In this document: in pieces, positions 26,701 through 64,000 of the stretch
Position numbering within the stretch: position 1 is the first letter of the stretch
How the letters are laid out: the number at the start of each line of letters is the position of its first letter
Assembly: GCA_030704615.1 (NCBI GenBank)
Contig: CM060731.1
Span: 13,888,001 to 13,952,000, forward strand
Direction: 5' to 3'
Origin: Takakia lepidozioides
Taxonomy: Eukaryota > Plantae > Bryophyta
DNA length: 64,000 bases
The notes under the pieces: model-generated
The model's database searches: none
Told to the model about the DNA's origin: nothing
What the model saw: the letters and a program-made list of their open reading frames with translations, nothing else
Position numbers and translations under genes: made by a program

Positions 26701-29700
26701 GTGTTTCAGGCTCCCAGTCGACATGCCAAAATATGAAAGGGTGCTGGTGGTAGAGCGAATAATTGGAGCTTTAGGACTGGGACCTGTCCGGGACTCTACT
26801 GTGGGAACGGTTCAGAACAGGGGAATCTCAGGAGGACAACGCAAGAGAGTGAATGTGGGGTTGGAGATGGTGATGGAACCCTCTCTTTTGATTCTTGATG
26901 AACCCACTTCGGGACTCGACAGTACTTCGTCTCGATTGGTGCTCCAAGCCTTACGTCGCGAGGCTATGGAGGGTGTGAATGTCGGTGTGGTTCTCCATCA
27001 ACCCAGGTGAATGCTCTTCATTTCATATGCACAATGTTTGAACGCAATGATAGGGGCTACTTCAGGAAACTCACCCACAGTCAATACTTTGCCTTGTCTG
27101 TGCAGTTATGGACTTTTTCAAATGTTCGATGACGTAATGTTTCTGGCTAAAGGAGGGCATACAGTTTACCTTGGACCAGTGAATGAAGTGGAGTCTTACT
27201 TCTCAGGGCTGGGCTTGGTGGTACCAGAGCGGATCAATCCCCCTGATCACTACATGGATGCACTGGAGGGAATCGTGCACCCAGCAAATTCTCCCGACTT
27301 TGACCCCAGCAGTCTAGCAGTCCTCTGGATGATGCACAAGGGATATAGGATTCCCATAGATCTGATTACCACCGCTGCAGAGATACATGCTTCAGTTGGG
27401 AAGGAGAGAAAGAGCCTCATGACAGAGTCATCAAAACTGGCCACAAGCTTTGCACAAGAAGTGTGGGAGGATTTCAATGTTTTCTTGGTCGTGAGATGGG
27501 ATTTGCTCAAGAGCATGTTCACAATGGTGGACGACATGTCAGGCCGTTGTACACCTGGATTTTGGCCTCAATTTCAGATCATTCTCCGCAGGTCAGAATC
27601 GTCAGACAGAAGTTTTATTGCAAATTTCAATGTGCCTTCCATATGTGCGCTTAGCATGAGAGTCCAGGATGCCCCATCCAGAGATATCGAGTCTATGAAG
27701 GGAGGTTTGAGGCCAGCAGCTCAAAACTGGACCTTCAACTCTGCTGTCAACACAAGGAATGAGAGCAGCTGGTCTTACGATGGTCGCTGGGTAGTGTTCA
27801 TCGAGTGTTGTAGATGTAACCTAGTGCTTATCATAGCACCTTCACTCCTGTTTACCTCCCTTGTGTATTTGATTTTGTTTCCCCATGGGATATTAACCTT
27901 CCCTGAAGACAATACCCAAAGCCCTGTAATGGAAGAAAGGTTGGCATCCCATGCCACTATGCCCTGGAGGGCGTGTCAAAGCCTCATTAGAAGGAGTGGT
28001 TGGTTAATTGCTAAAATGTGGAGTAATCTGACACATTTAAGTCTGTTTGCTTTGCGGAAATCGGCAAGTCCAGGATTCAGTACTTGGGAACTGATCCTAA
28101 AGCCTTGGCCCTGTTGGCGTCAAATGGCTGGACAGCTCACACCCAGTAGATTGATGCTTATGTGAAGGGCTTTCTGGAAGAAATCTGGGAAGTCCGAATC
28201 AATTGTTTATACCAAGGTAAGTCCCACTACTGGAGTGAGCCCCTGTCTGTTCCCTCTTGTTTCACCCAAACTGGGCGGGAGGTCTATGGCCACAAGGCTA
28301 CGGCAAACATCGTCTCACGAGTACATTCTTAAGGACTGGGCCACAAGGCTACAGCAAACAACATCTTATGAGTACATTCTTAAGGATTGGTGGGCTTGCT
28401 GCATACCAGAGTGGCAAAGCAGCGGTTCCGGGATGCCAGACTTCAGGTCCAAGACTACATTATCTTGCTGATGGCAGGAGCGTGCTTAGGCTTTCTTTCA
28501 AATATGAAAGACATCAACCTAGGCTCCCAGGGGTACAGCTTCACCCTGATTGCGATAGGTACACCTCTTCCCGTTCTCCCTCAATTTCCTGGCTCTCTTC
28601 CTTCCATGTTATAAAGTTGCTTTCTTTGATGAGGTGTGATGTCTTAGGAAATCTCTTGATCAATAGTTGTTTTTGGGCTGCTTGTTGTTTTCTCTATTTT
28701 TTTCTTTTCCTGAAAGCATGCCTTCATTCTCTGTCAAGACCTGCATGAGGACTCAAAATCTGTTTTTTGATGCCTGATAGTAAGATTCAATATGGTATAA
28801 TTTTAGCTTCCATTTATTGGTTTCAAAAATTAAGACTTCAGAAAAGGCCGGAGATATAAGCTGTTTGAGATAACCTTTTGAGAGCCATTTGAGATCCAGG
28901 CCGCCACCCTGGCCTGAATGTAAGTTTGGTCTTGTAGGCTCACGTTGGAGATATGGAACAAACATATAAGCTATTTTGCGAAATCACTTAACACACTGTT
29001 CTATATCAGGTGATTCTCAGTTTAGTTTAAAAGTCACCATCTTGTATCCTTCCCCCTTGGCATCTTTCCAGGTATTTGTGTCATTTGCTTTACCAGCTAC
29101 TGCTTGCTAGAGCTGTCACCTCAGCCGTGCTCTTGTTTCTCAGATGGGGTTCTCGGATGGGGAAGGACCGAAAATATGTTGAAATGAAGCATATCACTTA
29201 CGCCATTATCATTGATTGCAAATGATTGATCTAAGTAGGTTGTTCTGTCTACAGCACTGTTAACCATGATAGCTGCCCTGAGGAGCTTCTCAATAGACAA
29301 GCTGCAATACTGGCGGGAGAGTGCCTCAGGAATCAATCGTATTGCATTCTTTATCGCCAAGGATGTCGTGGACATGTTTAATGTGGTCGTAAAACCTCTT
29401 TTCTATCTTTCCATGTTCTACTTCTTCAGTAATCCCCGCTCCTCATTCTTGGCCAACTATACTGTCACACTCGTGTTGGTCTATTGTGTGACTGGGATAG
29501 CATATGTTGCTGCAATCCTTCTGGAGCCAGCACCTGCCCAACTGGTCAGTTCTCTCTTCTGCAGATGTTATAACATCATAAGCTCTGTGAGATTTCTGCT
29601 TGTTTTTCTCTATTGCATCTTGCAAGCTAGCCAATCCCTTACAGAGGTTCCACTACGAGGATCAGGAATTCTTGACAGCACATCTCCATGAGACGCTACA

Positions 29701-31012
29701 TCTTAGGCAACCCCTTGATAGTTGTTGCTTTGGGCTGCTTGCTGTTTGCCCCACTCTTTTTTCCTGCTTTCTCTTGTCCATAAGCTGTTTCAGCTTTCCA
29801 CAGACTTTATAAAGTGTCATTTCATTTCTTTTTGCTGCACTGGAATCCAATCAAGAGTCAAGTTTGAATGTAGCTTGGGTTGCTGGCAACTAGTCAGAGA
29901 TTTGCCTTCGATAAAAACCACACTTAACATCTTTCCCTCTTTGGACCTCCACCATAAGTCTATGGCAATGACTACTTTCTCTCCAGCCCCTATCTCCCTC
30001 CCTACAGAGAACAATTTTGAGATGTGTAGGAAAACATCATTTCTCAGGTGCTACTGAATACTGAGTCAAGCTAAACTCAGGTATATCTGTGAGATGGTGC
30101 AGTGGGCAGTGTTTCTACCTATAATAGCGACACTTATTGCAAGTTCCAGACGAAGTGGTTTGTTGCAGCTATTGACTTATCTAAGCTATGCACGCTACGC
30201 ACTTGAGGCCTACGTCATCGCTAATGCAGAAAGGTGAGATCATTTGTTCATATTATTTAGGTTGTTGGGGAACTTTTTCTCTTGGGGAAGTATGTCATCA
30301 GTAAATTGAAACAAATATAAAGATTTTGATTGTGTGATATGTGTATGTTGTTGCTAACCTTGTGAGGCTTTGCCACTTCACTTGTGCCAAGGATTGCAGC
30401 CAATGAGTCTGAGATAAAATAATAATCTCCTGCCATACTGCCATACCAGCTCTCTTCCATAGCCGTTCCCATCATTTTGCTAGATGATCTCACGAACGAG
30501 TTGCATGTGGAGATATTTGAGGACAGAAGAAAAGAATGAAATGATACTATATAACATCCACAGAAAGCTCGAAGAGCTTATGCGACGAGAAAGCATGAAA
30601 CAAGAAAAAGAGGGGCCTCCTGAAGTAGCCCACAAAACAAGTGTTGTTCAAGGATTTTCTAAGAGTCAACTCCTCATGCAGAGAGAATGAACATTGTAGA
30701 ACGTCCACAGAATGCTCAGAGAGGTTTATGGGACAAAAAAAGTTGGTCCCCCAACATCCAGCCATCAGCAGAAGGGTAGAAATTCAGAGATTAACCTGTT
30801 TGGGAGCAAAAATATTCAATATTCTGAAGTGCATTTGTGGGAGCAGGTACACAGGGGTGTGGATTATCACACGTTGCGGCCTTCTCCAGACCCAGGGCTA
30901 TCGCCTCCATGATTGGGGACTTTGCCTACTGATTCTATTCCTTTATGGTGTTATTGCACGATTGCTGGCATTACTCTGTCTGTTCATCAGTAACAGAAGC
31001 CGACAAAAGTAG
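17719..31012 (+). CDS. ABCG half-transporter with N-terminal hydrophobic leader and Cys-rich domain (ABCG24/ABCG28/NAP12 type), copy 1, ~1150 aa
   Basis: 15 exons: 17719-17999, 18924-18997, 19128-19382, 19618-19681, 19990-20136, 20733-20767, 20908-20984, 24828-25058, 25430-26199, 26710-27006, 27106-27591, 28410-28558, 29255-29544, 30103-30233, 30847-31012; sum 3453 nt, divisible by 3. Walker A GPSGAGKT, signature ISGGQRKR, Walker [13 protein letters not shown]-loop [12 protein letters not shown] motif. Confidence 0.93.
21080..21925 (+). mobile_element. Cluster of RTEX-like LINE 3' fragments in ABCG copy 1 intron 7
   Basis: Several successive family tails, then a longer fragment ([12 protein letters not shown]) with an internal ~80-bp tandem duplication at ~21550-21720. 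Confidence 0.8.
22704..24520 (+). mobile_element. RTEX-like LINE with 5' inversion (degenerate RT)
   Basis: 22704-23287 encodes the RT N-half on the minus strand ([28 protein letters not shown]). 23285-24520 encodes the RT C-half on the plus strand ([22 protein letters not shown]), then the zinc knuckle and 3' tail. Confidence 0.88.
28145..28390 (+). mobile_element. 3' fragment of a second LINE family
   Basis: Matches 40335-40530 and 41995-42175. The terminal motif ggccacaaggctacggcaaaca...gagtaca is tandemly duplicated here. Confidence 0.7.
29630..29830 (+). mobile_element. RTEX-like LINE 3' fragment
   Basis: Family 3' end with variant hairpin aagctg-ttt-cagctt. Confidence 0.75.
30525..30740 (-). 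mobile_element. RTEX-like LINE 3' fragments, antisense
   Basis: Reverse complement of the family tail (aatgaaatg...gaaagctcgaagagcttatg). Confidence 0.7.
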
Positions 31013-41400: not shown

Positions 41401-44400
41401 TATTGCTCTGAAGTCGGTTGTCACTTGCACTGTACCATAGGGGTGTGTGAGATTGGGAGCCAGAGGTCACTGTCTGTCTTGTGGAAGAATATGAAATGAA
41501 ATGAAATGAAATGGTACTTTATAACGTCCGCGGAAAGCTCAAAGGTCTTATGGGACAAAATGGAAAAAAACAAGAGAGAGGAGACAAAACCGGAGCCAAA
41601 AAGCAGCCCTAAAGCAACTACTGCTCAAGGGATTGCCTCTGTGATGATGGAATCTTACAGCCCAATTACCTGTCTGTGGCTCTAAGGGCATGGGGAAGGT
41701 TTAGGGTGGGCTCCCAGAGTCTGCGGATAGACTGGTAGATGGGACAACCTGCAGCATGATGACCGTCTATGCCCCCCTTGTGCTGGGGATGACAGGAGGG
41801 AAATTGATAATGAAGAATATTTCTTCTTTCACTGTCCTTTCTACTATTAGATCCAGGGAAGATACTCCGATTGCCAATCTGTCACAGAGGTTTTCAATTA
41901 CAAGGATCTGGAATGCTTGGCAGCATATCTGCACGAGGCATTGATTCTCAGGTGATCTTTTTATCAACAGTTGTTTTTAGGCTGCTGGCCCCACTGTATG
42001 AAGGGATTTCTAGAGGATATGTGGAAAACTCGGATTAATAGTCTGTTCCAAGGTAAGTCATACTACCAGCGGCAGCCCCCGACAAAGGTAGTTTCTGTCC
42101 CTTTGCGTTCCGCTCAAACTGAGTGCAGGGTCAATGGCCGCAAGGCTACGGCAAACATCTTATGAGTACATTCTCTTTCCTGTTTCATGCTCATGTCCCA
42201 TAAGCTCTTGGAGCTTTGCGTGGACGTTATAAAGCAGCATTTCATCATTTCTTTCTCTCTCAATGAGGAGTACATAGTTAGAGGCAAGATACTCAAAGAA
42301 ACTCTCATTCCCAAGAACAAAGCCATCTTCCATGAGTAGCCTTGAGACCTTTTCGGACCAGATGGCCTGGCAGCTTAACTCTATGAGGTCTAACTCTCGA
42401 GATTCATGGGAGATTACATTGTCTATTCTGAGACACACAATCTCTCACAGAGGTCTTCCATTACGAGGATCAGGAATGCTTAGTGGCATATCTGCATGAG
42501 GTATTGACTCTTAGACAATCCATTGACAATAATTGTTCCTGGGCTCCTTGTGGAGGGCCCCTCTGTCTTTGCTCTCTCTTGCTCCAGAAGCTCTTTGAGC
42601 TTCCACAAACGTATAATCCACTTCTCACTTGCTTGATATCTCTAAACAAAATCTTGTTCTTCCTCTTCCTCCCTCCTTTCTCACTCTACTAGCATTGAAT
42701 CCATGCATCGGTCAAAGGGAATTCCATGCGATCTGGAAGGCTAGAAGCAAACCCATGTCCATACAGATAGCCTCCTGCCATTGTTAGTGGATCCTATGCA
42801 TTGTTATGCTTGGTCCCCTCCCCTCCCCTTCTTTCCGACTCTGCTTGATTGCCTATTCAATGGTCAAAATACCACAGCAAGCGAAGTCTACTAAGTACAT
42901 TCTAGGCACTTTACCAGTGGCTGTGGGGTGTAAAGTGTGGAAAGATGGTGCATGCAGGTAGTGCTTGTAGTTTTGCTTCTGGTGATCTTCACATGCTCGG
43001 ATTGGTTGACGGATATAAAGAAAAGGCGCAAATCTACTACACGACAACTGGCTGCAAAAGAAGCATATGAGCGGGTTTCAATTGTCGCACAATGGCGAAA
43101 ATCTGCAAAGCGACGGGCAACAATGATAGGCAACAAACTCAGCCGTACCCTTACCCGCAAACAGACTACACGCAGCGTGCAAGAGTTGCAGGTAGGAGTG
43201 CAATCATCAGAATGAATAAAGAGACAGCTAGGAAAATGGACGCATTTTGTGGCAAATTAATACCAAATGTTCCAAAGAACATCTTTTAACAATGAATAAA
43301 TTACTGCATTTCTCTGGGAAGCTGGGGCAATCGTGCAGGGGTTAAAACCTCAGATAAAATGCATCTTCCAGTTGAAGAATTGATGATAGTTGTCACTACA
43401 AATGTTAAGGGTCTGTGCTTGGAGCACTCTGTTTACTTGGTGTCCTACATTATTCTTCACACTAGCCAGTCAATGATTCACGTGTCTTTGTCTTTTATGC
43501 AAAAAATGAGGAGATAGACTTTAAAGTCTGTTTGGTGGTCTGTTACAGATCCTCTCCCCCCCTGCTGCCAGTCCTGTATACACCGGAAGCACTTCACAGT
43601 TCAATGACACAGGGGTACCGCCTTCTGGTATAATTGGACGCTCTGGACTACTTAGTGAACCTATTGATGAGTATGCACCTGCCAATCCACCTCCACTCCC
43701 CCCAGTCCCACTAGTTGCCTGGTCAGGCGACCCAAATTCTGCACCAAACATAAATCCTTCAGATGTCCCTCCTAAAGCAAACATCCCTTTGGACAGTGCG
43801 AAAGACTCTAAGCGCCCACCTCCCAAAGTACTCTTTAAAAGGGACAGCCAGATTTTTGCTTATGCCTATGGCCAACTTGAGAAAGAGAGGGCCTTTGGAA
43901 TGAAAGGCCAGTCTCCCACTATGAAAGACATGGACTTCTTGGACCCCTTAGGGGGGATGGTGGTAGGGAATATGCGACCCCCAATTGAGTTAAGCTTTGT
44001 TGACCTCTCCCTCATACTAAAAGGAAGTGGGAAGAAAATCTTGTGCAATGTGACTGGAAAGTTGTCACCAGGGCGCATCACGGCAGTTATGGGCCCTTCC
44101 GGTGCTGGAAAGACCACATTTTTGAATGCCCTAGCAGGCAAGGCTACAAACAGTCACACCACCGGGCAGGTGTTTATCAATGGGAACCCTGAATCGATTC
44201 ACTCTTACAAGCGCATCATTGGATTTGTGCCTCAAGATGATGTTGTCCATGGCAATTTGACCGTAGAGGAAAACCTTTGGTTCAGTGCCAGCTACAGGTC
44301 ACCTGCTATCTCACACCCATAAGCTCTTTGGGCTCTCCATGGGGCATCATCCTTTCTTTCTTCGTATGACGCATGCAGGCAAGTAGGCTGTTTGGCTCCA

Positions 44401-47400
44401 AGTGCGATCTCTCCAGTAATTAGTGATTGTTTGCTGGACAGTAGTGGGTACACTATCACCATGGTCTCCAGGAGTAGACGTTGTCAGTACTGCAAAGGTC
44501 ACAAAGCTCTGGAAAGCAGGAAATGTCAAGGCATTTAGTCTGTCCCTGTAGGCCCCTTTGCCACTTCCTCCCCATATATATAAGGTTAACTTTGATAATC
44601 GTAGGTTACTAGCAACACAGAAAAGTTTGGAATGTTCTCTGCTTGTGGAACTCAATGTCAGCAAGCTTCACTGATTGAAGTTTATCAAGTACGTTTGTTT
44701 AGATGGGCTACCAAACAAGTCGCCCCAAATGTTTCAGGCTACCAGTGGACATGCCTAAGTATGAAAGGGTGCTGGTGGTGGAGCGAATTCTCGCAGCTTT
44801 GGGACTGGAATGTATCCGGGACTCTACTGTGGGAACAGTTGAGAACCGTGGAATCTCAGGAGGACAGCGCAAGAGAGTGAATGTGGGGTTGGAGATGGTG
44901 ATGGAACCCTCTCTTTTGATCCTGGATGAACCCACTTCAGGACTAGACAGTACTTCGTCACGCTTGGTGCTCCAAGCCTTACATCGGGAGACAATGGTGG
45001 GTGTTAATGTCGGTGTGGTGCTTCATCAACCTAGGTAAACGCCTGTGGCATGTCAAGCTTTTCTCCTTTGGGACTCCCACAGATGTACTAAATCTTGCCC
45101 ATAAGCTATTTGAGTTCCAATGGATGTTATAGAGGCTCGTTGAGCTTTACCCTGACATTATGAAGTTCCATTTCATTTCTCTTTGAGCTTTCCGTGGACA
45201 ATATAAAAAGTATCATTTCATTTCATTCTTTCTTTATGTCTCCCCTGGGCCTACTGTGCCTCTAACAAATTGTTCATACTCTTGTTCTGCTTCTTCTCTT
45301 CTTTTGTTTCTGCTCCCAAAGTTTTTCTCTATCTTTTTCTGCTTATGTTAAATCCTGTTTCTTTTGTTGTGGGTAGGAAAGCGAGGTTTTGCACACAAGG
45401 CTACTGAATGCAGTCTAAAGAAAGCATTCTATCGGTCTTCCTCCCCTTGTATGTCGCATCAGAAGGTCTTATTCGTAAATTCCTTGTATAATAGAAACTC
45501 TAGCAAGCTCATGTTCAGTCTATATCTTCACCTTGCATGTGCAGTTATGGACTTTTTCAAATGTTCGATGACGTAATGTTTCTGGCTAAAGGAGGGCGTA
45601 CAGTTTACTTGGGACCAGTGAGTGAAGTGGAGGCTTACTTCTCAGGGCTGGGCTTGGTGGTACCAGAGCGGATCAACCCCCCAGATCACTACATGGATGC
45701 ATTGGAAGGAATTGTTCAACCAGAAAACTCCCCCGACTTTGATGCCAGCACTCTACCTATCCTCTGGATGAGGCACAAGGGATATAACATTCCCACAGAT
45801 ACTGCTGCGGAGATACATGCACCAATTGGACGTGAGAGAAAGGGCCTCATAACAGAGTCATCAATGCTGGCTGCAAGCTTTGCACAAGAAGTGTGGGTGG
45901 AAACCAAAACTTTCTTGGTAGTGAGATGGGATGGGCTGAAATCCACGTTCAGAAAGGTGAACGATCTGTCCGGCCGTCAGACACCTGGTTTTTCTCAACA
46001 ATTCGAGATTATTATTCACAGGTCAGAGTCGTGGCCCATCCTTTGTACTGCATATGTATCTATCATTCAAGCAAAGCTGCATTAAACATCATGCTTTCTC
46101 ATATTTTGTAGATGCCTGCCCTGTAGACGACACTCAAACTCTGTAACTGAACTGTTGCAGCTGTTCGCAAGCACTATGGCAATTTTGGGATGGTTGCATA
46201 CAATGGTGGGTTAATAATCCACACAAAGCTTAGCATATCTCAGAACTCGAGAACTGACTCTTGAGGACTGGTGGGGGTTGCTGGATATCAGATTAGCACA
46301 GCAGCGGTTCCGGGATGCCAGAGTTCAGATCCAGGACTACCTTATCCTGCTCATAGCAGGGGCATGCTTGGGCTTTCTTTCAAACATGAGAGACACCAGC
46401 CTAGGATCCCAGGGCTATAGCTATACCATCATCGCCATAGGTTCACTTCTTCCTATTCTCCTTGCATTGTACTGGCTCTCTCCTATCCTCCCTTCCTTCC
46501 TTACTCACACCAAAGAATTTACTTCTACAAAGAACCTTCTTTATCCTTAGAGACAATCATGAAAATGGGATGGTACATCTGCGACAATTTGCACTACAGG
46601 CAAAGTGGAGACAGAGCATCGTTTCTTCTTCTTGGGCCCTGCATACTAGAAGATCCTGGGCAGATATGTTGTTTTAAATATTCTCCATCCCTGGCAAAGG
46701 CCTCACTATGAGGACCTACCTACATGAGAACAGCGCATTCATGCAACTCTAGAACTCTTTGAGTAGTTCTGTGGTCTCAGTCATTCAGCTGTCTAATTTC
46801 TCTATGGTTCTTTGTTGCCTGGTCCCTCCTGCTGACGTAGTAAATGTATAGCAGAAAGAACCTGGTTGAGGGCTTTGCGCCAGACAAGCAACAAGGGCAG
46901 GAGCCCAAGTGCTTTGGTGCAGAGCACGAGGGCAGGTGCTTTCTGCTGCCTTGAAGGCTGACTCTGATTTTTAGCCCTACATCTTGATTTTATCACACGG
47001 TTATAATCCCCTTCGATCGTGGGCACTGGGGATATAGGGTGGAATGAGCTATTCCACCCTCTGACACATGGTTGAACCAGATGTTTCACCCCCTGATCCA
47101 CTTGACATGGGATTCCGCCTTTGAAAAGTCCCCTCGAACTACACTAAGAAAATCAGAGGAGGTCTTTACGATTTTGTATTTGAACATAATTTGACTTTCC
47201 CCTTATGGTTTGTTGTTCTTCTACTTTGTGCCAACTTTGAGGTTCCTTCTTCATTGCTTACCCTATTAGTATGCCTTCATTATGTGTAAGAGCCAAATTG
47301 AGACTCTTCTATGTCTTTGGGTGGTATTCTCAAAAGCTCTCTCAATGCTGGCTGTGTAAGCCAGGGCTGTTTGTGAGAATTTTTGTAGTTTCTGAGGACT

Positions 47401-49234
47401 TTGGACCTCCCTGGCATGAATGTTCAGGATCAGAATGTGATATGGACTTCGTCATGTATGCCCATGTTTGGGAGATGATTGGAATGTATCAGCTATTGTA
47501 TAAAGTGGTCTATAGACGTCTATACGAGATGATAGTCAGTTTAGACTTGAATAGCTCACCATTTGGTATCTTCTCCCTTGGCTTTTTTTCCAAGTTTTTC
47601 TGTCGTTTGCTTTACTTTTTACTTTTTTCCAGAGCTTCACACCTTGAGAGTGCTCTTGTTGCTCAATGGGGAAAGAAAGCAGAAATAGGTGGAAGGAAGC
47701 ACGTCACTTCACATATCTTCTTTTATCTAGCTAAAATTGATTGATCGAAGTCCTTTCTACAGCTCTGCTACCAATGATAGCTGCCCTGAGGAGCTTCACA
47801 GCAGACAAGCTGCAATTCTGGCGGGAGAGTGCTTCAGGAATCAACCGTCTTGCATTCTTTATCGCTAAGGACATCATTGACATTTTTGACGTTCTTATCA
47901 AACCTCTATTTTATCTCTCCATGTTCTACTTCTTCAGTAATCCCCGCTCCTCATTCGGTGAACACTATGTCATCACACTTGTGCTGGTGTACTGCGTGAC
48001 TGGGATATCATATATTGCTGCCATCCTTCTGGAGCCGGCACCTGCCCAACTGGTCCGTTCTCCTTTTTCATCTCTCCCTCTTAGTAAACTTCTTTCCTTT
48101 CTTTCTTTGCTGTTGTCAAGAATGCTATTTGGGCTTCCTGTTGACGTTCTAAATCTATTTGTTTCTTTATTTCTCTCACTTGTCCGCTTGTCCAAGCTGG
48201 GGGTGGGATCTGGCAACAAGGCTGTGACAGGCACAGTGTCGTCAGTATGTTCTCTGTTTGTAGCACTAGTGGAATGTAGCCAATGAGAAATCAAATTTGA
48301 GTTCTGCATATAGCTGGAGAGGTTCATATGCAAACTAGAACAACACCTGCAAGAAAATCAATCCCTTTTCTATTGCATCCCAATAGACAATGGAGTCCAT
48401 GTCCAAACCATTGCAGCAAGAACTACTAGCAGTTTACCTGCATGAGGCATTCCACCTTTATGCCACACTTCAGAAGTTCTTTGAATTCTGTAATTCTTTC
48501 TTGTTCTACTTGGGTCCCTTGTGCCCTTTAGCGTCTTTTTATTTATTTCTTGCTCCGGTGTTTATGGCAATAAGCACAGTGTTTCCACTCCACTCCTCTT
48601 CCTCCCCACTGAAAGATTTGTAATATGCAGCCTTTATAGCCATTATGAAGTTTCTTTCCTTTTTGTTTTCTGAAATCCTTTCAAAGCAAATGTCATCGAT
48701 GTTTCTCACGTGCTACTGTATGGTGTGTCGAGCCAAACTTGTGTGTACCCATGAGATGATGCAGTGGGCAGTGTTTTTACCCATAATAGCCACGCTTCTT
48801 TCAACATCAAGGAAAAATGGTTTTTGGAAGTACTTTTCGGCTGTAAGCTATGCGCGCTATGCACTTGAGGCATATGTCATTGCTAATGCAGAAAGGTCGG
48901 ATCATATTTCCCTTGGTATTTAGTGTTTGTTTGTGAATATTTACTTTCAAGGATTGTATGCACTACATACATTGTGTGTATATGAGGCAAGGGCAATACA
49001 TAAATTTATCATTGCCTGTTTTATAGCAAAATTTGACATTTCGTCTACTGTTGCATTTGTGGGAGCAGGTACAAAGGGGTGTGGATTATCTCACGGTGCG
49101 GTCTTCTTTCGATCCAGGGCTATCGTCTACATGACTGGGGACGTTGCCTAGTCATCCTTCTCGTTTATGGTGTTGTTACACGAGTGCTGGCTTTACTCTG
49201 TCTATTTGTTAGTCACAGAAGCCGCCAACAGTAA
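35454..49234 (+). CDS. ABCG half-transporter (ABCG24/ABCG28/NAP12 type), tandem copy 2, ~1149 aa
   Basis: 15 exons: 35454-35755, 36500-36573, 36704-36958, 37085-37148, 37783-37929, 41009-41043, 41187-41266, 42958-43191, 43549-44297, 44738-45034, 45545-46021, 46292-46440, 47763-48052, 48765-48895, 49069-49234; sum 3450 nt. Same intron positions and phases as copy 1, and all ABC motifs intact. Confidence 0.93.
37250..37425 (+). mobile_element. RTEX-like LINE 3' fragment
   Basis: Family tail ending in (CATTT)n. Confidence 0.8.
38450..39080 (+). mobile_element. Probable degenerate L1-like LINE ORF2 C-terminal fragment
   Basis: Frameshifted Trp-rich peptide KKWHMAWS...KLNVLLRF resembling the post-RT region of L1 elements; weak. 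Confidence 0.35.
40050..40590 (+). mobile_element. 3' end of second LINE family (zinc knuckle) followed by an RTEX-like tail
   Basis: ORF 40053-40538 has [10 protein letters not shown]...[17 protein letters not shown]; 3' end shared with the 28145 and 41995 copies. Confidence 0.75.
41490..42620. mobile_element. Cluster of LINE 3' fragments (both families, both orientations) in ABCG copy 2 intron 7
   Basis: Antisense tail 41490-41640 starting with (GAAAT)n; sense fragments at 41640-41990, 41995-42245 and 42435-42620. Confidence 0.75.
45095..45230 (+). repeat. Three consecutive RTEX-like terminal tails
   Basis: Repeated gagctt(t)cc...gaca(t/a)tat...catttcatttc units. Confidence 0.7.
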
Positions 49235-50499
49235 AAGTGAGTAGCCAAAACCCCAGCAGTAATGTTCATGATGTAACATTCATGAGATTCCCAGCGCTCG
49301 AAGCAAGTCTGGTCCTGTGATAGAATTGTACAATCAACAAGCCATGAAGCTCAATGAGAGTCTTGGTTCATGGCTTATGTTGGAGGCTATGCTCATTATC
49401 TAACCCACCCATGGGGATTTGCCAAGGCAAAGTTAGCACTAGCACCTCCAGGCTGCTGAGTCTTAAAGGCTTAATTGGGAACAAAGGCTTGGGTCAAACT
49501 GTACGTATCGTTTGTAAGTTCACCTCCGGGCAGGGAGCAGTACCTCCAACAGGTCAACAAAGTATGAAGTACCTCTAAATAGCACTGGTCTTGCATATTT
49601 TGATCCTGGGGCATGTCCTTTGTCTTTCGTCTTTTGTCCTGGGGCATGCCCTTCTAAGTCATGCCTGGGTGCGACTTATTTTTAATTAACTTTAGACAAG
49701 CTGTTTTCAGTAGTAGACTCTCAGATTCAACCCATAAAAGAGAAACATTTCAGTTACGATGTTTCAGTTAACATCCTAGTTACAGATGAGAGATTATTTT
49801 GGGAGTAGACTCTCAGATTCGCAATGAGACAACGCTTTCCATTAACCATGGATGTTTCTCTCAGCGACTGTGAGGTCTACGCCTTTTCTCCAGTCACGGG
49901 AAGATGGTGAAGGCCATGTATCACCTGGATCAACTGCTTCCAACTTCAATTGTTTAGAAGCAGGGTTTCAGATCTTCAATTTCATAGCAAACACACAGCC
50001 CACTACCTGATCATCCCGCCCAACCATGTACAAAGGACACTGCCAGATCAAGGCTCAGAAGGATGTTCTATTGCAAGAAAATAATGTTAGTGGGGACGTA
50101 TCCATCAAATTGCGAGTGACAGTTCCAAACAGTGGTGTGGCAGGAAGACGGGAGTTTGACCATTTCGTAAAACGTAGTGGTTCTTATTGAGAACAGAAAG
50201 TGAGGGATGTGTTCTTACACCCATTCATGGGTGCCTTCACCATGACATTCAAAGATCCTATGAGCCTGGCCAAGTTACAGAAGACCACCACTGCTCAACT
50301 CTAGAAGTTTCAGAACACAGATGATACACCTCCTATGCAAGAGAAGACTGCAAGCTTTACCCAAATGGTGTCCTTGTTGAGTATTTCCTGTGTTGGCTTC
50401 AAGTGGGTCTGTGGAGGGACCATCAATTTCAGTCCAACCTGGTGGACTGGGTGACACTTGCTGTATGATTGTAATACATTTTGCAGGTGCCTTCTAAAC

Positions 50500-55355: not shown

Positions 55356-56579
55356 CCCTTAAGTTCCCAAGCCCTTTTTTGACTTTTTACCAATTTTGGG
55401 TACCCAGCTGCAGTAAATTGCCCCTAGAAACCTACCAAAAATCATCCAGAGATTCCAGCCTTATAGCAATGGGCCCAGCTCATTTATGCATGACATACCA
55501 AAAAATAAGCCAAATCCACCGTGGAAATTGTGGGATTATAGCGTTGGCCTAGACCTCAAATATCAGGTCCCAAAGAAAAAGTGAGAAAAAAATTGGTTTG
55601 ACCAAATCAAAACCTAGCTTTATCCAATTTTGCTTGCCCCAAGACCCACCATTTCCAAATCAATAGTGGAGTGGTTATGTGTATGAATTGGAGCTGCCGG
55701 CAAACAACAAGGTGCATCCAGTATTTCACGTCTCCCTTTTGAAACCTTACTTCAAAGATTAAGCGCGTCCGAATCGGCATCAAGTGTTGCGTCCGCCACC
55801 TGTGCTGTTGGATCATGAAAATGAACCTGAGTACGAGGTGGAGGCAGTACTTAAGTCGAGGAGGTTCAAGAACCGAGAAACGGAGTATCTCGTCAAATGG
55901 AAGGGCTATCATCATGTGGAGACATCTTGGGTGCGTGCCTCAGAAATGGAAACGCATCCGAGGCGGTTGCAGTTTTCGAAGGGCGACCTCAAAAGCGGAA
56001 GAAGCGTTGATGGGGACATCAACCTTGGAGCGTGGGGGAGGAAATGCATGCTTAGCCCGGTTTAGCTAGCTAAGGAATCCGATTGCAAAAACTTGTATTG
56101 TACAAACTGATTTTTTCACCTATGGTTGCTATGCATGCAATTACACGGGGGTTGAAATCTCAAAATTGACAAGAGAAAATGTGCCTCCAAATGAAGTACT
56201 TTTTTTCTACAATTTTTAAAAGCCAATGGTGGATGTGTGTATGTAATGCTCACACACCACAAAATGAAGCACTTTTTCCAAAATTGCTAATTTTCTGCCA
56301 AAAATGGCCTTTGGAGTGCAATCTGTTTAGGACTTGTTTACCTGCCACGTCAGCGGTCAACAAGCCCTTTTCAGGCCCCAAAACGTAAATGAGAGATCTA
56401 AGATATATTTTGTAGGTCGTAGTTTTTTTTTTTCTTTTTTCATTTTTTTTCATCATACTCGAGACAAATCCCTTGTCATTAAAGCTTCAGGAGTGGGCCC
56501 CATCAGATTAGATCTGCAAAAATTAGGTCGAACTGCAAATTCAAAGTGACCCGATTCAGGTCGCTTGGGAACTTAAGGG
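55356..56579. mobile_element. Non-autonomous piggyBac-like DNA transposon in CAD intron 1
   Basis: Perfect 17-bp TIRs CCCTTAAGTTCCCAAGC (55356-55372) / GCTTGGGAACTTAAGGG (56563-56579), flanked by TTAA at 55352-55355 and 56580-56583; no transposase. Confidence 0.82.
55649..56044 (+). mobile_element. Chromovirus (Gypsy) pol 3' fragment: integrase C-terminus, chromodomain and PPT
   Basis: [24 protein letters not shown], then EYEVEAVLKSRR...EYLVKWKGYHHVETSW, then purine tract GGGGGAGGAAA at 56034-56044. Confidence 0.88.
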
Positions 56580-57914: not shown

Positions 57915-60900
57915 CTAGATGCGTAATGGCTCCACCCTCCAATGTGGAGTGTGTAACGAAGTATTTTACATGCTATATTGTAGAATGATGATATTTAACA
58001 ACATGGTTTGGTAGTTTGAAAGCTATATATATAGGTTTGTGATCTGTCCAATATGCCTCTGTAACTCCTGATATGCATTGTTGGTTAGGTGTATTTGTCC
58101 AAATATGGTCCAACTGTGAACCATATATTGTAGTTTTTTTCATGAATTGAAGTGTCATATTGAACATCCTCATGAATTGTAGCAATTGTTTTTACATAGT
58201 TGAATCATTTTGTAATATATTGATATTGAAATACCCTATAATAATGGTGGGACAGAAATGTGGTATTTTATGAAGAATTGTTTGTAGTTGAGATAAAAAT
58301 ATAGATATCGAAAGTGATGGAGGTTTGTAAATAGTAACTACATGAATAGCTCTTCTTGTATTTTTATTGAAAGTGGCCATTATATATTCAACACCAGAGA
58401 ATGAAAACACTTCATGAGATACTAAAGACATTGTTCTGTCATATAACATCATGGTGCTATGACTACCATGTACAGCGATATATGAATATTTTGTGGAATC
58501 CATAAACAGATTTATATTGGAATTAGGTTTGAAGTGCGTTTCACTAAAACATAAAATATGAGCCGTTTGCAAGTTGTGGTATGCAAAAACATCTTCTTTA
58601 TGTAATAACAATGATCTTGTATTCAAGTGTTGTATAATTACATGTGATTGTTTGTATATGTGCAAAGTTGGTACAAGTAACTGCCATCGTGCGCTTGTAT
58701 ATAGACGTTGCATCTCCTCGGCAACCCCATTGTCAACATGAAATTTTTTCAATTGCAAATTTGCTAAGAGGTATAAGTTTTCTTTGTTACGTATGCGTGA
58801 CAAAGCTGTATAACTTAAACCATGTTTATATACCCCTGTAGGATCGAATGCTAGATAGTCCAAAGTTAAGCCTTGAGAACGATGGATTGTTCGAGCGGCT
58901 GCTAATTGAATAGGAAATTGGATTCTAGTAATTGTATGTGAAGTATTTGATCTTATTTGAATCTCTTTAGAGATTGGTTGAATTGGAGTCCATAACTTAT
59001 CTATTGTTGAGTTATATAAGTGAATATTTTTTGCACGTGTAGCGACACTAGATTTTGGATTGTTAAATTGTATCCATATTAAAGGGGTTGAATTTGTTAA
59101 CACGGAAGTATGTTTAAATATATCGTCCGCCCCATTTACTAGACCATCATGAGTTGCATAATTTCCTGCACATAATTCAATTAACATCTTTTTTTTAACA
59201 TGAATTGTTGTATGTAAGCCGGCCGTGTTGGCTGCATTGTCCAAGAGCTTAAAAGTAGATGGACATGTATCATGGTGTTTGTCTATAGCTTCAAAAATAT
59301 ATACAGATCCTTTAGTTTGCTCGAATGCTTTGTGATTATGAATTAACATATTTTTGTTGGTATAATATAAATGTGAAAATGCTGGATTGTTTGGCGGAGG
59401 GCGATTGACGCATTACTTGAGTAAGTTCGTAACATTTAACACAGTCCTGCCAAAAACCGGGAACTAAAGCATCAGGACTTTCGAGTTTTTTCTTAAAAAC
59501 CCACGAATCTCTTACTGGCGGTGCCTAATAAAAATCTCCAGTAATAATAACATCAATATTACCAAAGAAAGTACCATGAATTTGTTTAATTGATCGTAGT
59601 TGTTGATCAATAAACGTAAGCATCATGTTACCCACAAGAGACACTTCATCTAACACCATAAGTTGTAGTTGATCAAATGATTTTACCAACGTGTCCAATC
59701 GTTTTGATCCGAGTGAAGGCAAATCTTTGCAATTAAGAGGTATGCTTAAACTAGAATAAATGGTTGTTCCATCAATATTGAAGGCTGCTTTGCTAGTGTA
59801 AGCCATAAGAATTGTTTCTTTTCTTAAGCGGGTCAGATTGTGGATGTTTATTATAAAATCTAAGCAGACCTTGAATAATAATAAGTAAAGTAAACGTTTT
59901 TCCAGTTCCTGCTCCCCTAGTCAGAAACAAATGCAAGGGTTTGTCAGGAAACATCTGTTTTCTGTGTATGCAATCATCAAAAATTGCACGTTGTTCTGGA
60001 TTAAGCTTTCGCAATTGTTCATAAAATTGTTTATTAGGAATAATGTTGTCAGGTGTTGTAGATATGTTTGCCTCCGGTATTGTTGTTGACAATCCAATTT
60101 CAGGACGCAAATGGAATTTTGTTGCTATGTCATATGTTTCAATCCCTGTGCAATCTGTCAAAGACTCAAAAACGTTTGGCAACATCAATGAACTTGTCCA
60201 TCCATATACTAAGATTGTTGGTTTTTGCTAATTCGTGTGTTTTTGTCTCTAATGTAATCCAATCTGAAAGAGTAGTGTTTTATGTTAGGAACTGTCACGT
60301 TTCATCAATATAGTTGGTTTGTGAACCAAATAAGCATCATGCCATGTTTCATGGTCGCCTTTTTGTGATTCTTCGCTTCCCACAAATGGATGAAAAAGTA
60401 AAAGTTGTTCCCGATAATAGTTCTCGGAATCGCGATGTTCGTTACAGTGCACATACCTAATAATATGGGATTTTTGCCGCGGTTTTATATTACTTCTATC
60501 TACATTATAATCTGCTACATATTCACCGAGAATCAAGTGAAGTAATGTAGTTGGTCGCTCAATATATTTGTCAATAGCATACGAACATTTAATATCGGTG
60601 GACTCGGGTGGAAGACCTCGCAAATCTTTATCGGATTTCAATACAAATGCACGTTCTTGCGGAGATGATGTATTTATGAAGTTGAAAGTTCTTGATGCAT
60701 GATATAGTGGTATGGATAACACAATGTATGCAGCCAATTGAGCCGACATCTGTTGTTCATTTAGGAAAACATTTCCCATTTTACGGATTCTGACATTTGC
60801 ATCAATTTGTTCTGAATTACATTTTTCTGTGATTGTGCGAAATTCATTAGTAATAGTTTTATCTATTTTAGTTAGATAAGATGTACAATAACTAGCTGCC

Positions 60901-61605
60901 GCATAAGGATCAAGAGTATACTGTACAACAGTATTAGCTTGCCACAGTGGACCCGCATGTATGCCGAATGCTTTTGTGCGAATGTCTTTACATGCTCTTT
61001 TTAAAAATAAAGTTGGTTTGTGTAATCTACTACGTATAGCAGCTATATATGTTTTTTCATCAATATGTAACAATGAAAGAAACTCATTAAATGTAATATC
61101 TTAACCCATATCCATTTTGTCCAACTCAGTAAATATTACAATTGATATTTGATTCAAATGCATCAATTGTTGTTTGTTTAATTGTTCTGTTAAAGGTTCC
61201 AAAATTGCGGTAGAATTCATTGGGGACAATGGATAATGAAAACGACATATAGCTTGATTCTTTTTCCTGCATGTTCATTTGTGTCGATGGGTTTGAGCTT
61301 CACGTAGAATGGGTGGAATAACATTACTATCGGATGTTATATATTTATCTACGAATTGTTCAATTATATCATTTTTATCAACCCCGTAAATTGGTGCATT
61401 AGCTATCCATAACATACCATGATCATCCTCACTGCCTCGGCTTTGAATTCCGTTACAAAGAAGAAATCACGGAGTTTTCAAAAAATGGTATGATCTTTCA
61501 TACGTAAATGTCTAAATGCACCCATTCGATGATCATAATATCGATCACATGTAACGAGATCCGATCTTACCAATTCAGCAACGTGTTTACTTTCCAAATT
61601 TTGAA
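57915..61605 (-). mobile_element. Degenerate Helitron/Helentron: Rep, PIF1-type helicase and AP-like endonuclease
   Basis: Rep motifs (EF.SRGSEDDHGMLW; YAAASYCTSYLTK), helicase motifs (GAGTGKT, LDEVS, GDFY, QFPIQLAAARTIHRSQGLTL, YTALSR), endonuclease motifs (LNTRSL, FSETH, IYKPP, IIGYFN, LDHIW, TDHKPI). Frameshifted, markedly AT-rich; 5' part cut by the Gypsy insertion. Confidence 0.92.
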
Positions 61606-61785
61606 TGTGTCGTGCGCATACATATCGCTACACAAACTACATCGCTGTCCAAAACCACACAACACATGTGCACACCACACATTAGTATACCACTAGTCCA
61701 GCCACTAGTCCAACCACTAGGCTACAACTAGTCAGTCACTAGGCTGCCACTATGCTGCCCACTATGGCAGTCACTAGTCCACACA
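61606..61785 (-). repeat. 3' LTR (180 bp) of the Gypsy element
   Basis: TGTGT...ACACA termini, preceded on the minus strand by PPT-like GGGGGTGA (61787-61794); internal ccactag repeats; Helitron coding sequence resumes at 61605. Confidence 0.75.
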
Positions 61786-64000
61786 ATCACCCCCATAGCT
61801 GGTGCTTAGGTCCCTCTAAGTCCAGGTAGCCACAAGATGTGATAGTGACCATAGCCTCACTAAGTCCTCCACCACTGTCCCTACTACACTCAAACTCGAT
61901 AGATCAAGAGACCGGGTGCAAGAGTTGCCCCATCGTTAGTCGCCGTCTTGCAACCTGTGAACTTGAGCCTGAGATCTCGTGTATTGACTCCTATGAGCTT
62001 GGCCTCCTATGTCTTGTTAGCTGCCTCTAGTCATGTCCACTGCCACTATCCCAAGCAGTGTGGACATAACCAATCTCCATCAGGAACCCTCTCAAGAGGT
62101 GGTGTCAAGCATCCCATATGCCAACCTCTTGAGCGTCGATCACACACCAGCATGGTGGCTGCCCCTTTTTCAGACCCACAGAGCATGCACCTCAAACCTG
62201 CAAGTACCACTGCCAAGTTTGGGTCAACTCTGCCATTGACATTGGGAAGGTGACATGATGCACAATTACGCACATGGTCCTTCCAAGTCATGCCATCCCG
62301 ACCCTCCAAGATCAGGACCCCTGAGGGCAACACCTCTCGAACCCTCAGAATAACACGCCCTGCAGTAACATCCAGGGTTGTATGAGCAGTCTGCTGCAAA
62401 TAAACATAGTCACCAGGGCTAAACCACCGAACCCCAGGACGATATCCTCCACCACGTATAATGGCATACCTCAACGTATCACGGTGTTGTGCAATGGCAA
62501 GGTTCTCAAAAGCCATGGGCATGACTTTCTTGAACAACTCTGCACGCTGACCACATGCACGTACCCACACATCCGGATCGTCAAGGTTAAGGACTTGAGC
62601 GGTGTCTCTACGAATGGCTGTAGGCAAATCCGGCTCTCGGCCAAAAAGAACGAAATATGGTGAGAAGGAGGCAAGTGATGCTTGTTTGCTGAATCTGTAG
62701 CCCATGGCTAACCAATGCACCTAAAGATCCCAATCTCCTAGATGTCCCTTCTGCAAGCTATACTTGCGCAAACCCCTCTTCACCGTCTGAACAACTCTCT
62801 CTGCCAAGCCATCGGCCTCAGGATGATCTCGAGAAGTGGTACGATGGTCTATCAAGGCTTTATCATACAAAGCCTGAAACTCGCCCAAGAACTCTCTCCC
62901 TTGGTCCGTGAGTACCTCAGCTGGAGCATCAAATCGGCTAAGCACACGATCTAAGAATGCATACGCAGCCCTCTCACTAGCCTTGTCAGGCAATGGAACC
63001 AACTCAATCCACTTGGAGAAGTGCTCCACCATCACCAACACATATCTGTGGTGGCGCATAGTCAGTGGCAACGGTCCTGCGAAGTCAAGACTCCACCTGT
63101 AGCCCAATCCCATGATTGGTAAAGGATGCAACTGTGGTGTAGGGGCGTTGAATGAAGCACGCACCCTGTCACACACCATGCACCTAGCCACGAACTATTG
63201 TACCTATGTATGCATACCACGCCACCAATACTGCCCTTGCAGTAAACTGTGAGTGCGTCGCACTCCAAAATGCCCCAACTCCTCATGGGCATGCCGTACT
63301 AACCGTGCACGCTGTGTAGGGTGAGGCACAATCCACCCGACCATCCTCCCATACTCGGAGCAGGTGTATCCCCTCCCACTTGAACCTCTTGGCTCGTTGC
63401 AGGATCCGATCCCTCTCCCTGGCAGTCATAGTGGCTGTCGTGTCTCCCGTGCGGAGGTAGTCCAACACAGCTGAATCCTCATGTATATCTCTGGCACACC
63501 AACCTGCCACTACCAGATCAATGGAGCCAACCCGCTCCAAATCCTGCGCCCCCAGCAACGAAATGTCTGCTGGCAAGGCCTGCTGATATCCACGAACTGC
63601 AGACACCGGCAACAACTCAGGGTACCGCTGCACCAACTGAGCAACATGGCGAAGTGAAACGCGTCGTGCAGTCTCATCCCTCTCCACATACATGTAACAC
63701 CGAACTCGTACACCTTCCTGTAACACAACAGCCAATCCGGTGCTGATCTCACCAAACAAGTCCAGAAGACAAATGTCTTCATCCGGATACTGCCACACAA
63801 TAGGTGTGGTGTCCAATGGAGAGAACTGAGGTGGTCCTGGTGCAATCCCCGCACTCTCCTCCTCTTCTAATGGTACAAAAGCCTTCACCCAGACTTGTTG
63901 CACCCGTCGATTAGCAACCCGCTGCAAATCCTTGTTCGTGCCCCACAATGGAGTCTGAGCAACCATGGCAGGCAACTCTGCCATACCATACATGTCATCA
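61606..64000 (-). mobile_element. Gypsy LTR retrotransposon (partial, internally deleted) with C5 DNA-methyltransferase fragment, integrase and PHD finger
   Basis: DNMT motifs I-IV at ~63774-63499; integrase HHCC (HEELGH...CMVC) and D-D-E (SLDFAG, TDQG, LAERVV) at ~63290-62750; PHD CMLC...CDRR...WHMGC...WLCPHC at ~62190-62050. Confidence 0.9.

Follow-up and report, generated by a model that had tools for sequence, protein, structure and literature searches.

The 64,000-nucleotide stretch of Takakia lepidozioides DNA analysed here (contig CM060731.1, positions 13,888,001 to 13,952,000), hereafter referred to as the window, was shown to carry at its 3' end a decayed Ty3/Gypsy retroelement (the window copy), which occupies the final 2.4 kb on the minus strand. 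This dead, internally deleted element belongs to a real Ty3/Gypsy lineage in which a DNMT3-type C5 DNA methyltransferase (DNMT) domain is combined with a PHD finger at the end of the integrase. A preceding sequence-only reading of the window had quoted four DNMT motifs at ~63774-63499, and all four (I, II, III and the start of IV) were located there in a single minus-strand frame. Its Gypsy integrase ending in a PHD finger was likewise borne out, as the integrase zinc finger (PF17921, 39.7 bits), the integrase core (PF00665, 51.3 bits) and the PHD finger (PF00628, 35.9 bits) all scored above the Pfam cut-offs.

The window copy is indeed defective, as had been proposed: the DNMT is cut at 63499, the frame is shifted near 63333, in-frame stops are present at 63206, 63197 and 62723, DNMT motif I is altered and one zinc ligand of the PHD finger is lost. 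Approximately 2.6 kb, a size estimated from the domain coordinates of the related locus L036, is missing at the cut, encompassing the catalytic half of the DNMT, a conserved stop codon, reverse transcriptase (RT) and RNase H; only the integrase is retained from the protease-RT-RNase H-integrase order. The element terminates with ...GACA at 61608 and extends past the other end of the window, with gag, protease and the left repeat lying beyond 64000. No second copy was found within the window.

The isolated DNMT fragment did not match the Pfam DNA methylase family PF00145, with zero families obtained at E<=1 and, in a second scan, zero at E<=0.1, which is attributable to its truncation. The lack of a DNA methylase match was one of the outcomes that the sequence-only reading had named as refuting it. 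A family DNMT profile was built from seven members with the window copy excluded. Against this profile the 97-aa fragment scored 110.8 bits, the best of 1000 shuffled sequences reaching 5.0. When the fragment was used as a query, 33 proteins sharing 47-72% identity with it were obtained; those with a species name belong to Marchantia polymorpha, Calypogeia fissa and Sphagnum. Of 30 matches scanned, 21 passed the PF00145 cut-off. Identity to the three nearest tested family domains was 73-81% over ~94 aa.

To define the family, a locus survey was based on the integrase tail plus PHD finger, a query that does not favour DNMT carriers. It returned 110 proteins, and 84 loci were taken forward, i.e. 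the best 80 of 515 confirmed in metagenomes plus four from genome contigs. Among 31 loci whose sequence reaches 3 kb or more upstream of the match, 27 carry a DNMT (23 of 27 once four duplicate pairs were merged), the remaining four of the 31 being internal deletions or truncated copies. The order, where complete, is gag-protease-DNMT-RT-RNase H-integrase-PHD. The intact locus L025 encodes a first open reading frame (ORF1) of 1359 aa, one stop and then 1047 aa; the protease-RT-RNase H-integrase order with zinc finger and DDE core was found in L025 and in protein P0144. For locus L031, a match to a gene model of Sphagnum fallax spans the start of RT.

Members were identified in Marchantia, Calypogeia and Sphagnum, and named relatives in Klebsormidium nitens (KFL_009030040, P0141), Coleochaete, Tetradesmus and Scenedesmus. 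A family with DNMT and PHD in land plants, as first proposed, is therefore real; its restriction to land plants is not, because it probably belongs to the KnitGypsy-Dnmt3 lineage and extends into chlorophytes. In chlorophyte-type relatives (Tetradesmus, Scenedesmus; P0088, P0063, P0369 and others), the DNMT lies between RNase H and integrase instead of before RT, which implies that the domain changed place inside the polyprotein. A full DNMT scan yielded 267 clusters (50% identity, E<=1e-30). Among the top 150 DNMT relatives, all 69 proteins of at least 900 aa contain retroelement domains, and 42 of the 59 integrase-bearing proteins in this long-protein set also contain a PHD finger. Fern, lycophyte and seed-plant names were absent from the element matches, most of which are unnamed, and two scans of viral contigs returned no relatives. 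Four loci (L081-L084) lie inside bacterial or archaeal genome bins, most likely as eukaryotic contamination; the RT protein of L081 is publicly filed under a cyanobacterium. In the deletion derivatives L006/L007 and L014, RT and RNase H are lost while gag-protease-DNMT and the PHD end remain; in L006, both element ends are present together with an exact target duplication.

In sequence searches of the Protein Data Bank (PDB), the family DNMT matched DNMT3A/B/C first, followed by bacterial enzymes and DRM2. An AlphaFold model of the L025 domain (pLDDT 95.7) had DNMT3A/B as its best Foldseek matches (E 1e-19), and in VIA comparisons reached Z 29.1 with DNMT3B (rmsd 2.6, 272 aligned), compared with 25.7 for M.MpeI, 23.2 for M.HhaI and 19.5 for DNMT1. 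The domain is thus DNMT3-type by PDB sequence ranking and predicted fold; an Atlas search returned generic C5 methylase clusters only. Motifs I-X, in order and with catalytic Cys, EN and RxR, were found in family members, not in the window copy, and across 127 related domains these three signatures are kept in 116, 114 and 120, respectively. The DNMT dN/dS was 0.07-0.11 among L025, L027 and L081 (RT, 0.04) and 0.14-0.18 between the window fragment and four relatives, values that are rough, with dS near saturation. Between subfamilies, Ka/Ks was 0.07-0.18, under the purifying threshold of 0.2, and the family DNMT is under purifying selection.

Trees of DNMT and integrase were compared for 49 sequences, after exclusion of nine sequences that were near-duplicates or spliced gene models, and of every partial domain. 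Nineteen of 23 DNMT splits with support of at least 0.9 were shared, no conflict was observed at 0.95 or above, and label shuffles gave at most two common splits. This agreement, which follows from kinship, shows long co-inheritance, not function. The DNMT and the integrase of the window copy both adjoin L019 and L031 (support 0.998 and 0.975).

Sister copies under the same species label as the window are numerous in public DNA runs, with 26,837 contigs on the stretch in run X1; summed read depth, which is not copy number, rises ~1000-fold at the element boundary near 61608. In runs of three DNA studies, contigs of sister copies break at 63499 (52 in X1, 20 in X3, four in X5; likewise in X4 and X6) and extend from there to the Pro-Cys codons of the catalytic motif IV; others break at 63495-63497 from the opposite side. 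None of the listed pieces bridges the junction, and the ~2.6 kb deletion therefore looks private to the window copy. Runs presumed to be RNA gave few contigs (X12) or none (X13), which carries no weight on expression.

Split terminal repeats, a stop between DNMT and RT, and a self-priming site are features absent from the sequence-only reading. It had placed the DNMT within the pol frame; in the closest relatives, the DNMT instead ends ORF1 (gag-protease-DNMT) before a conserved stop. In the near clade, which includes the window copy, ORF1 stops ~100 codons after DNMT motif X, and RT is in the same frame. Four Marchantia ORF1 models with all motifs intact end 97 aa past motif X, and ORF1 proteins from Marchantia, Calypogeia and JGI data end 93-99 aa past it. 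An in-frame stop is present at the same place in 16 of 26 loci with a DNMT-RT junction, in the contexts TAG-CAR (12 loci), TAA-CAA (two) and TAG-TAA (two). The full TAG-CARYYA, of which CARYYA is described as a readthrough context (PMC3441728, available text), occurs in three of the 12 TAG-CAR loci, and the TAG-CAR stop is likely to be read through.

The elements start with TGTCA and finish with GACA, and their terminal repeats are split, as A...B or A...B-A-B; two complete identical long terminal repeats (LTRs) are not present, and what had been taken for a 180-bp LTR is the B half of such a split repeat. A B match was obtained in 30 near-clade loci, of which 12 proceed as B-gc-A(-B), 16 end after B and two are partial. 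The B-A junction is also present in two further subclades and, at position 61608, in sister copies, which continue across it at loose contig ends in run X3. A 4-bp target duplication, observed in both long and short forms, is exact in four of seven distinct two-ended insertions, with one mismatch in two and two mismatches in one. This count leaves out L050, whose outer right end was not located and which has four mismatches at its inner junction, and the window copy, whose left end lies outside the window.

A G-rich tract lies directly before B and a primer site directly after A, and reverse transcription should therefore give [B-A]-body-[B-A]. The primer site is a perfect 11-16 nt complement to sequence 26-34 nt after a TATA-like box in five of six loci, a match never reached by ~1000 random 20-mers per locus; in three of these five loci, the pairing had also served to place the end of A, which makes them less independent. 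The primer sequence differs among three subclades, with a two-sided change between L025 and L081. Tf1/sushi-type self-priming, as described in the available text of PMC6317226, fits this site, and priming is likely to be self-priming from a predicted transcript start. Cleavage of palindromic junctions has been reported for retroviral integrases (PMC2884000, available text), and the inserted long form likely represents a [B-A]-body-[B-A] molecule whose two ends were linked and which was then opened at the palindrome within one of its repeats.

The solved PHD fingers nearest to that of the family are those of CHD4, KDM5B, ATXR5, KDM5A, WSTF and PHF21A, most of which we take to be readers of histone H3 unmethylated at K4 (H3K4me0). 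PHD fingers that read H3K4me3 typically have a cage tryptophan. The residue two before the zinc-binding His is Gly in 90 and Trp in one of 100 family PHD fingers, and the window copy likewise lacks the tryptophan at this position. No Chromo domain match was obtained in L025, P0144, P0088 or P0039, and the PHD finger ends the frame in near relatives. PHD fingers as such are already known in many retrotransposons, according to the consulted portions of PMC6673714, PMC8557442 and PMC9940879.

The explanation towards which we lean is that the window holds a dead copy of a bryophyte Gypsy-DNMT3 family whose elements produce DNMT in bulk, methylate their cDNA and integrate from a circle; its functional steps are all ones that we infer. 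Its basis comprises the layout, the TAG-CAR stop, the catalytic motifs and purifying selection, all observed, and the DNMT3 fold, which is predicted. Ribosomes would quite probably stop mostly after Gag-protease-DNMT, with occasional readthrough, placing DNMT at Gag-like amounts in the particle and leaving RT-integrase-PHD scarce. With similarly good confidence, the transcript would start ~30 nt past the TATA in repeat A, and its first 11-16 nt would pair behind A without a tRNA, as in Tf1/sushi. Reverse transcription would then yield [B-A]-body-[B-A] with its ends joined, and the integrase would cut the palindromic GACA-gc-TGTC and insert A-body-B-A-B, a step that appears reasonably probable and of which the 4-bp duplication is the observed part. 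Recombination of B with B, a circle with one LTR or cleavage at both junctions could account for short A-body-B copies such as the window copy. More tentatively, DNMT released by the protease might methylate the cDNA, which would arrive pre-marked; equally tentative is the suggestion that the integrase PHD finger recognises H3 tails lacking K4 methylation and steers new insertions away from promoters. That an old green-lineage Gypsy branch jointly uses self-priming, a two-repeat circle, palindrome cutting, pre-methylation of that circle by a DNMT3 that readthrough allows to be packed in capsid-like amounts, and H3K4me0 targeting through the PHD finger is unlikely. If true, it would represent a replication mode unlike that of any described DDE retrotransposon, and a transposon would have rebuilt the writer plus H3K4me0-reader logic of animal DNMT3.

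Several observations weigh against this explanation. Glu-Cys replaces Pro-Cys in 69 of the 127 related DNMT domains, with 11 fitting neither pattern. The observed/expected CpG ratio of 0.41-0.78 in elements versus a host background of 0.41 represents no signature beyond background, and decayed sister copies have dN/dS values of 0.5-0.8 among themselves, as would be anticipated once copies have inserted. PHD-bearing relatives without a DNMT in their long RT-RNase H-integrase-PHD frame exist (e.g. P0094 and P0097), and the DNMT is therefore not essential to the wider clade. With regard to the stop, 10 of the 26 junction loci lack it at that place, the distant subclade, P0144 and the Klebsormidium protein have DNMT and RT in one uninterrupted frame, and Sphagnum-type copies have an ATG two codons past the stop, which permits re-initiation. 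Finally, the Klebsormidium DNMT showed no methylation activity in yeast, a result that its authors call inconclusive (PMC5890265, available text).

The yeast result and the Glu-Cys variant would also fit an alternative in which the DNMT is kept for another role, be it methylation of the target site or the integrated element, action in trans on host DNA, or service as a non-catalytic DNA-binding module, for example in holding or gating the palindromic junction. The occurrence of the domain at two polyprotein positions, and of deletion derivatives that keep gag-protease-DNMT while losing RT, point the same way. Such a role is rather less probable than not. Against it, the Cys, EN and RxR signatures are kept in most domains, and the place of the DNMT in ORF1 before the stop would predict Gag-level DNMT in the particle where cDNA is made.

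The split repeats might alternatively arise without a circular substrate, by internal cutting of linear or tandem cDNA or by recombination after insertion. The short A-body-B form is the commoner one (16 of 30) and could derive from linear cDNA cut at both junctions, and two-LTR circles are usually described as dead ends (PMC2884000, available text). In contrast, the A-B joint of the long copies reads like two joined cDNA ends, with exact 4-bp duplications at the outer ends in L018 and L036, and the A...B-A-B layout is common to three distant subclades; a route without circles is accordingly rated as rather unlikely. Only the long form has a second A for strand transfer and would therefore have to be regenerated in each cycle. 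If DDE integration from an end-joined circle is true, the dead-end view of two-LTR circles would be overturned for at least one natural lineage.

Instead of readthrough, the RT-integrase-PHD frame could be expressed by re-initiation, splicing or an internal promoter. This is suggested by the Sphagnum-type ATG, by the CAACCC found in most copies, one base off CARYYA, and by Tca2, whose junction sequence was not sufficient by itself for readthrough (PMC2194720, available text). We consider it improbable, given that the reading frame is kept across the stop despite linker lengths of 529, 598, 643 and 652 nt, that TAG-CAR is kept across subfamilies with saturated synonymous sites, and that L025 and L081 lack an early ATG, the first one being located 116 codons after the stop, inside RT. 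A one-off capture of a host DNMT3 fragment by the window copy, or a chimera of two unrelated elements, as might be suspected from a short fragment that has no Pfam match and directly abuts the integrase linker, was rejected as highly improbable on the basis of the sister copies that continue into the catalytic motif exactly at the break, the locus census (27 of 31) and the matching tree positions of the DNMT and integrase of the window copy.

Among known systems, DIRS elements of the PAT/Ngaro/TOC1 type share the split direct repeats, their A...B-A-B layout being accompanied by a presumed circular intermediate. The present family differs from them in having a DDE integrase and a 4-bp target duplication rather than a tyrosine recombinase, a family not detected in the L025 domain scan. 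The closest described system is KnitGypsy-Dnmt3 of Klebsormidium nitens, with DIRS-like repeats, reported by de Mendoza et al. 2018 (PMC5890265, from which the following is taken as far as its text was available). Both have an unrearranged DNMT3-type domain between protease and RT of a Gypsy polyprotein, purifying selection and DIRS-like split repeats, those of Klebsormidium being known here from description only. cDNA methylation was proposed there for DNMT-bearing elements, the DNMT3 of SymbioDIRS-Dnmt3 was found to methylate CG in yeast, the KnitGypsy acquisition was called specific to the K. nitens lineage and its repeats were given no mechanism. P0141, a partial gene model taken as a KnitGypsy copy from its species and layout rather than from identifiers in that paper, has the protease-DNMT-RT-RNase H-integrase order of the family and groups with it at moderate support (FastTree, 0.83-0.87, in midpoint-rooted trees without outside references). 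The family differs in its land-plant hosts and in the DNMT-RT stop conserved in the near clade, as opposed to the single frame of P0141. Relatives reaching chlorophytes, with the DNMT there between RNase H and integrase, also depart from a restriction to K. nitens. A PHD finger is not mentioned for KnitGypsy-Dnmt3 in the available text or in three supplement files, P0141 itself being partial. Later papers refer to a streptophyte element (PMC12344493; bioRxiv 10.64898/2026.05.21.726589, as Gypsy-DNMT3).

PHD-bearing Gypsy elements are also known from Chlamydomonas (Gypsy-7a_cRei, REM1). In the polyprotein of Gypsy-7a_cRei, the PHD finger has been proposed to keep harmful insertions in check; compared by description only, no DNMT or split repeats are reported for this element in the available text (PMC9940879). 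Tf1/sushi and Tcn1 chromoviruses, the latter occurring in mosses and club-mosses, share predicted self-priming and a reader domain at the integrase C-terminus, whereas the family has a PHD finger in place of the chromodomain, plus the DNMT and split repeats; the available REXdb text mentions neither PHD nor Marchantia (PMC6317226). EpiLTRs are LTR retrotransposons that similarly pair a methyltransferase writer with a histone reader, but combine an adenine methyltransferase, a DNMT4-related DNMT and a chromodomain, and are set apart from Gypsy-DNMT3 by their authors (bioRxiv 10.64898/2026.05.21.726589, available text). DNMT capture by Gypsy elements is thus already published, while no publication appears to cover the land-plant range, the DNMT-RT stop, self-priming or the integration route. 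The literature searched, in which subscription journals are thinly covered, contained no land-plant members, DNMT-PHD pairing, readthrough signal, self-priming or circle integration for such elements, although the "streptophytes" of the two later papers may include land plants. The consulted portions of bioRxiv 10.1101/2021.11.30.470311 and PMC10952607 hold no account of the DNMT3-Gypsy family.

Why a retrotransposon carries the class of enzyme that silences it has been a question since 2018, and the algae to which its study was confined do not lend themselves to manipulation. In Marchantia polymorpha, several gag-protease-DNMT models whose motifs are intact have been annotated (Mp4g09160, MpVg00370, MpVg00540, Mp5g06330 and Mp5g06860), so that a genetic model is available for testing the question. 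The annotated entries are recorded as hypothetical genes of the host and can skew tallies of DNA methyltransferases in bryophytes; six Marchantia gene identifiers had no mention in the literature searched. Due to the split ends, standard LTR finders likely miss or misread the family.

Coordinates of the window copy and its flank are compiled below.

Features of the window copy and of the adjoining Helitron-like element (window positions)
Feature	Position	Strand	Remarks
Protease-DNMT linker	63775..64000	minus	Aligns with Marchantia P0006 aa 801-883 and Calypogeia P0004
DNMT3-type C5 methyltransferase, N-terminal third (motifs I, II, III, start of IV)	63499..63774	minus	Stops just before catalytic Pro-Cys
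DNMT motif I	63774-63736	minus	
DNMT motif II	63696-63676	minus	
DNMT motif III	63576-63562	minus	
DNMT motif IV, start	63522-63499	minus	
Deletion junction	63495..63499	minus	Gly-Trp of DNMT motif IV jumps to pre-integrase linker
Pre-integrase linker	63334..63492	minus	Matches the region right before integrase in P0037, P0038 and P0034
Ty3/Gypsy integrase zinc finger and DDE core	62751..63320	minus	Pfam PF17921, PF00665
Integrase C-terminal region	62208..62750	minus	GPY/F-like box at 62417-62397
PHD finger closing the polyprotein	62046..62207	minus	Pfam PF00628; stop codon 62048-62046
Conserved 3' box with G-rich, polypurine-tract-like run directly before repeat B	61787..61830	minus	Kept in ~30 related loci
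Repeat B	61608..61786	minus	End motif as in relatives; short form, no A-B after it
Decayed Helitron-like element outside the window copy (Rep-like, PIF1 helicase, endonuclease-like)	57973..61607	minus	PF05970, weak PF14529

The window copy was inserted into the Rep-like frame of the Helitron-like element, the motif at the insertion site being presumably Rep-like; the PIF1 helicase match scored 47.1 bits (PF05970), and that to PF14529 was weak (E 0.017). Elsewhere in the window, a chromodomain (PF00385, 43.7 bits) at 55763-56065 on the plus strand is probably the end of a separate chromovirus-type element. An ABCG transporter region is present as two diverged copies ~18 kb apart, at about 25400-31000 and 43500-49250, with the nearest proteins being those of mosses (61-62%), ahead of those of ferns and liverworts (50-55%). 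Judged by the ABCG matches, the host would be a land plant without seeds and probably a moss. A dispersed repeat family, represented between 6180 and 48500 by about a dozen partial copies in both orientations, looks like solo-LTR remnants.

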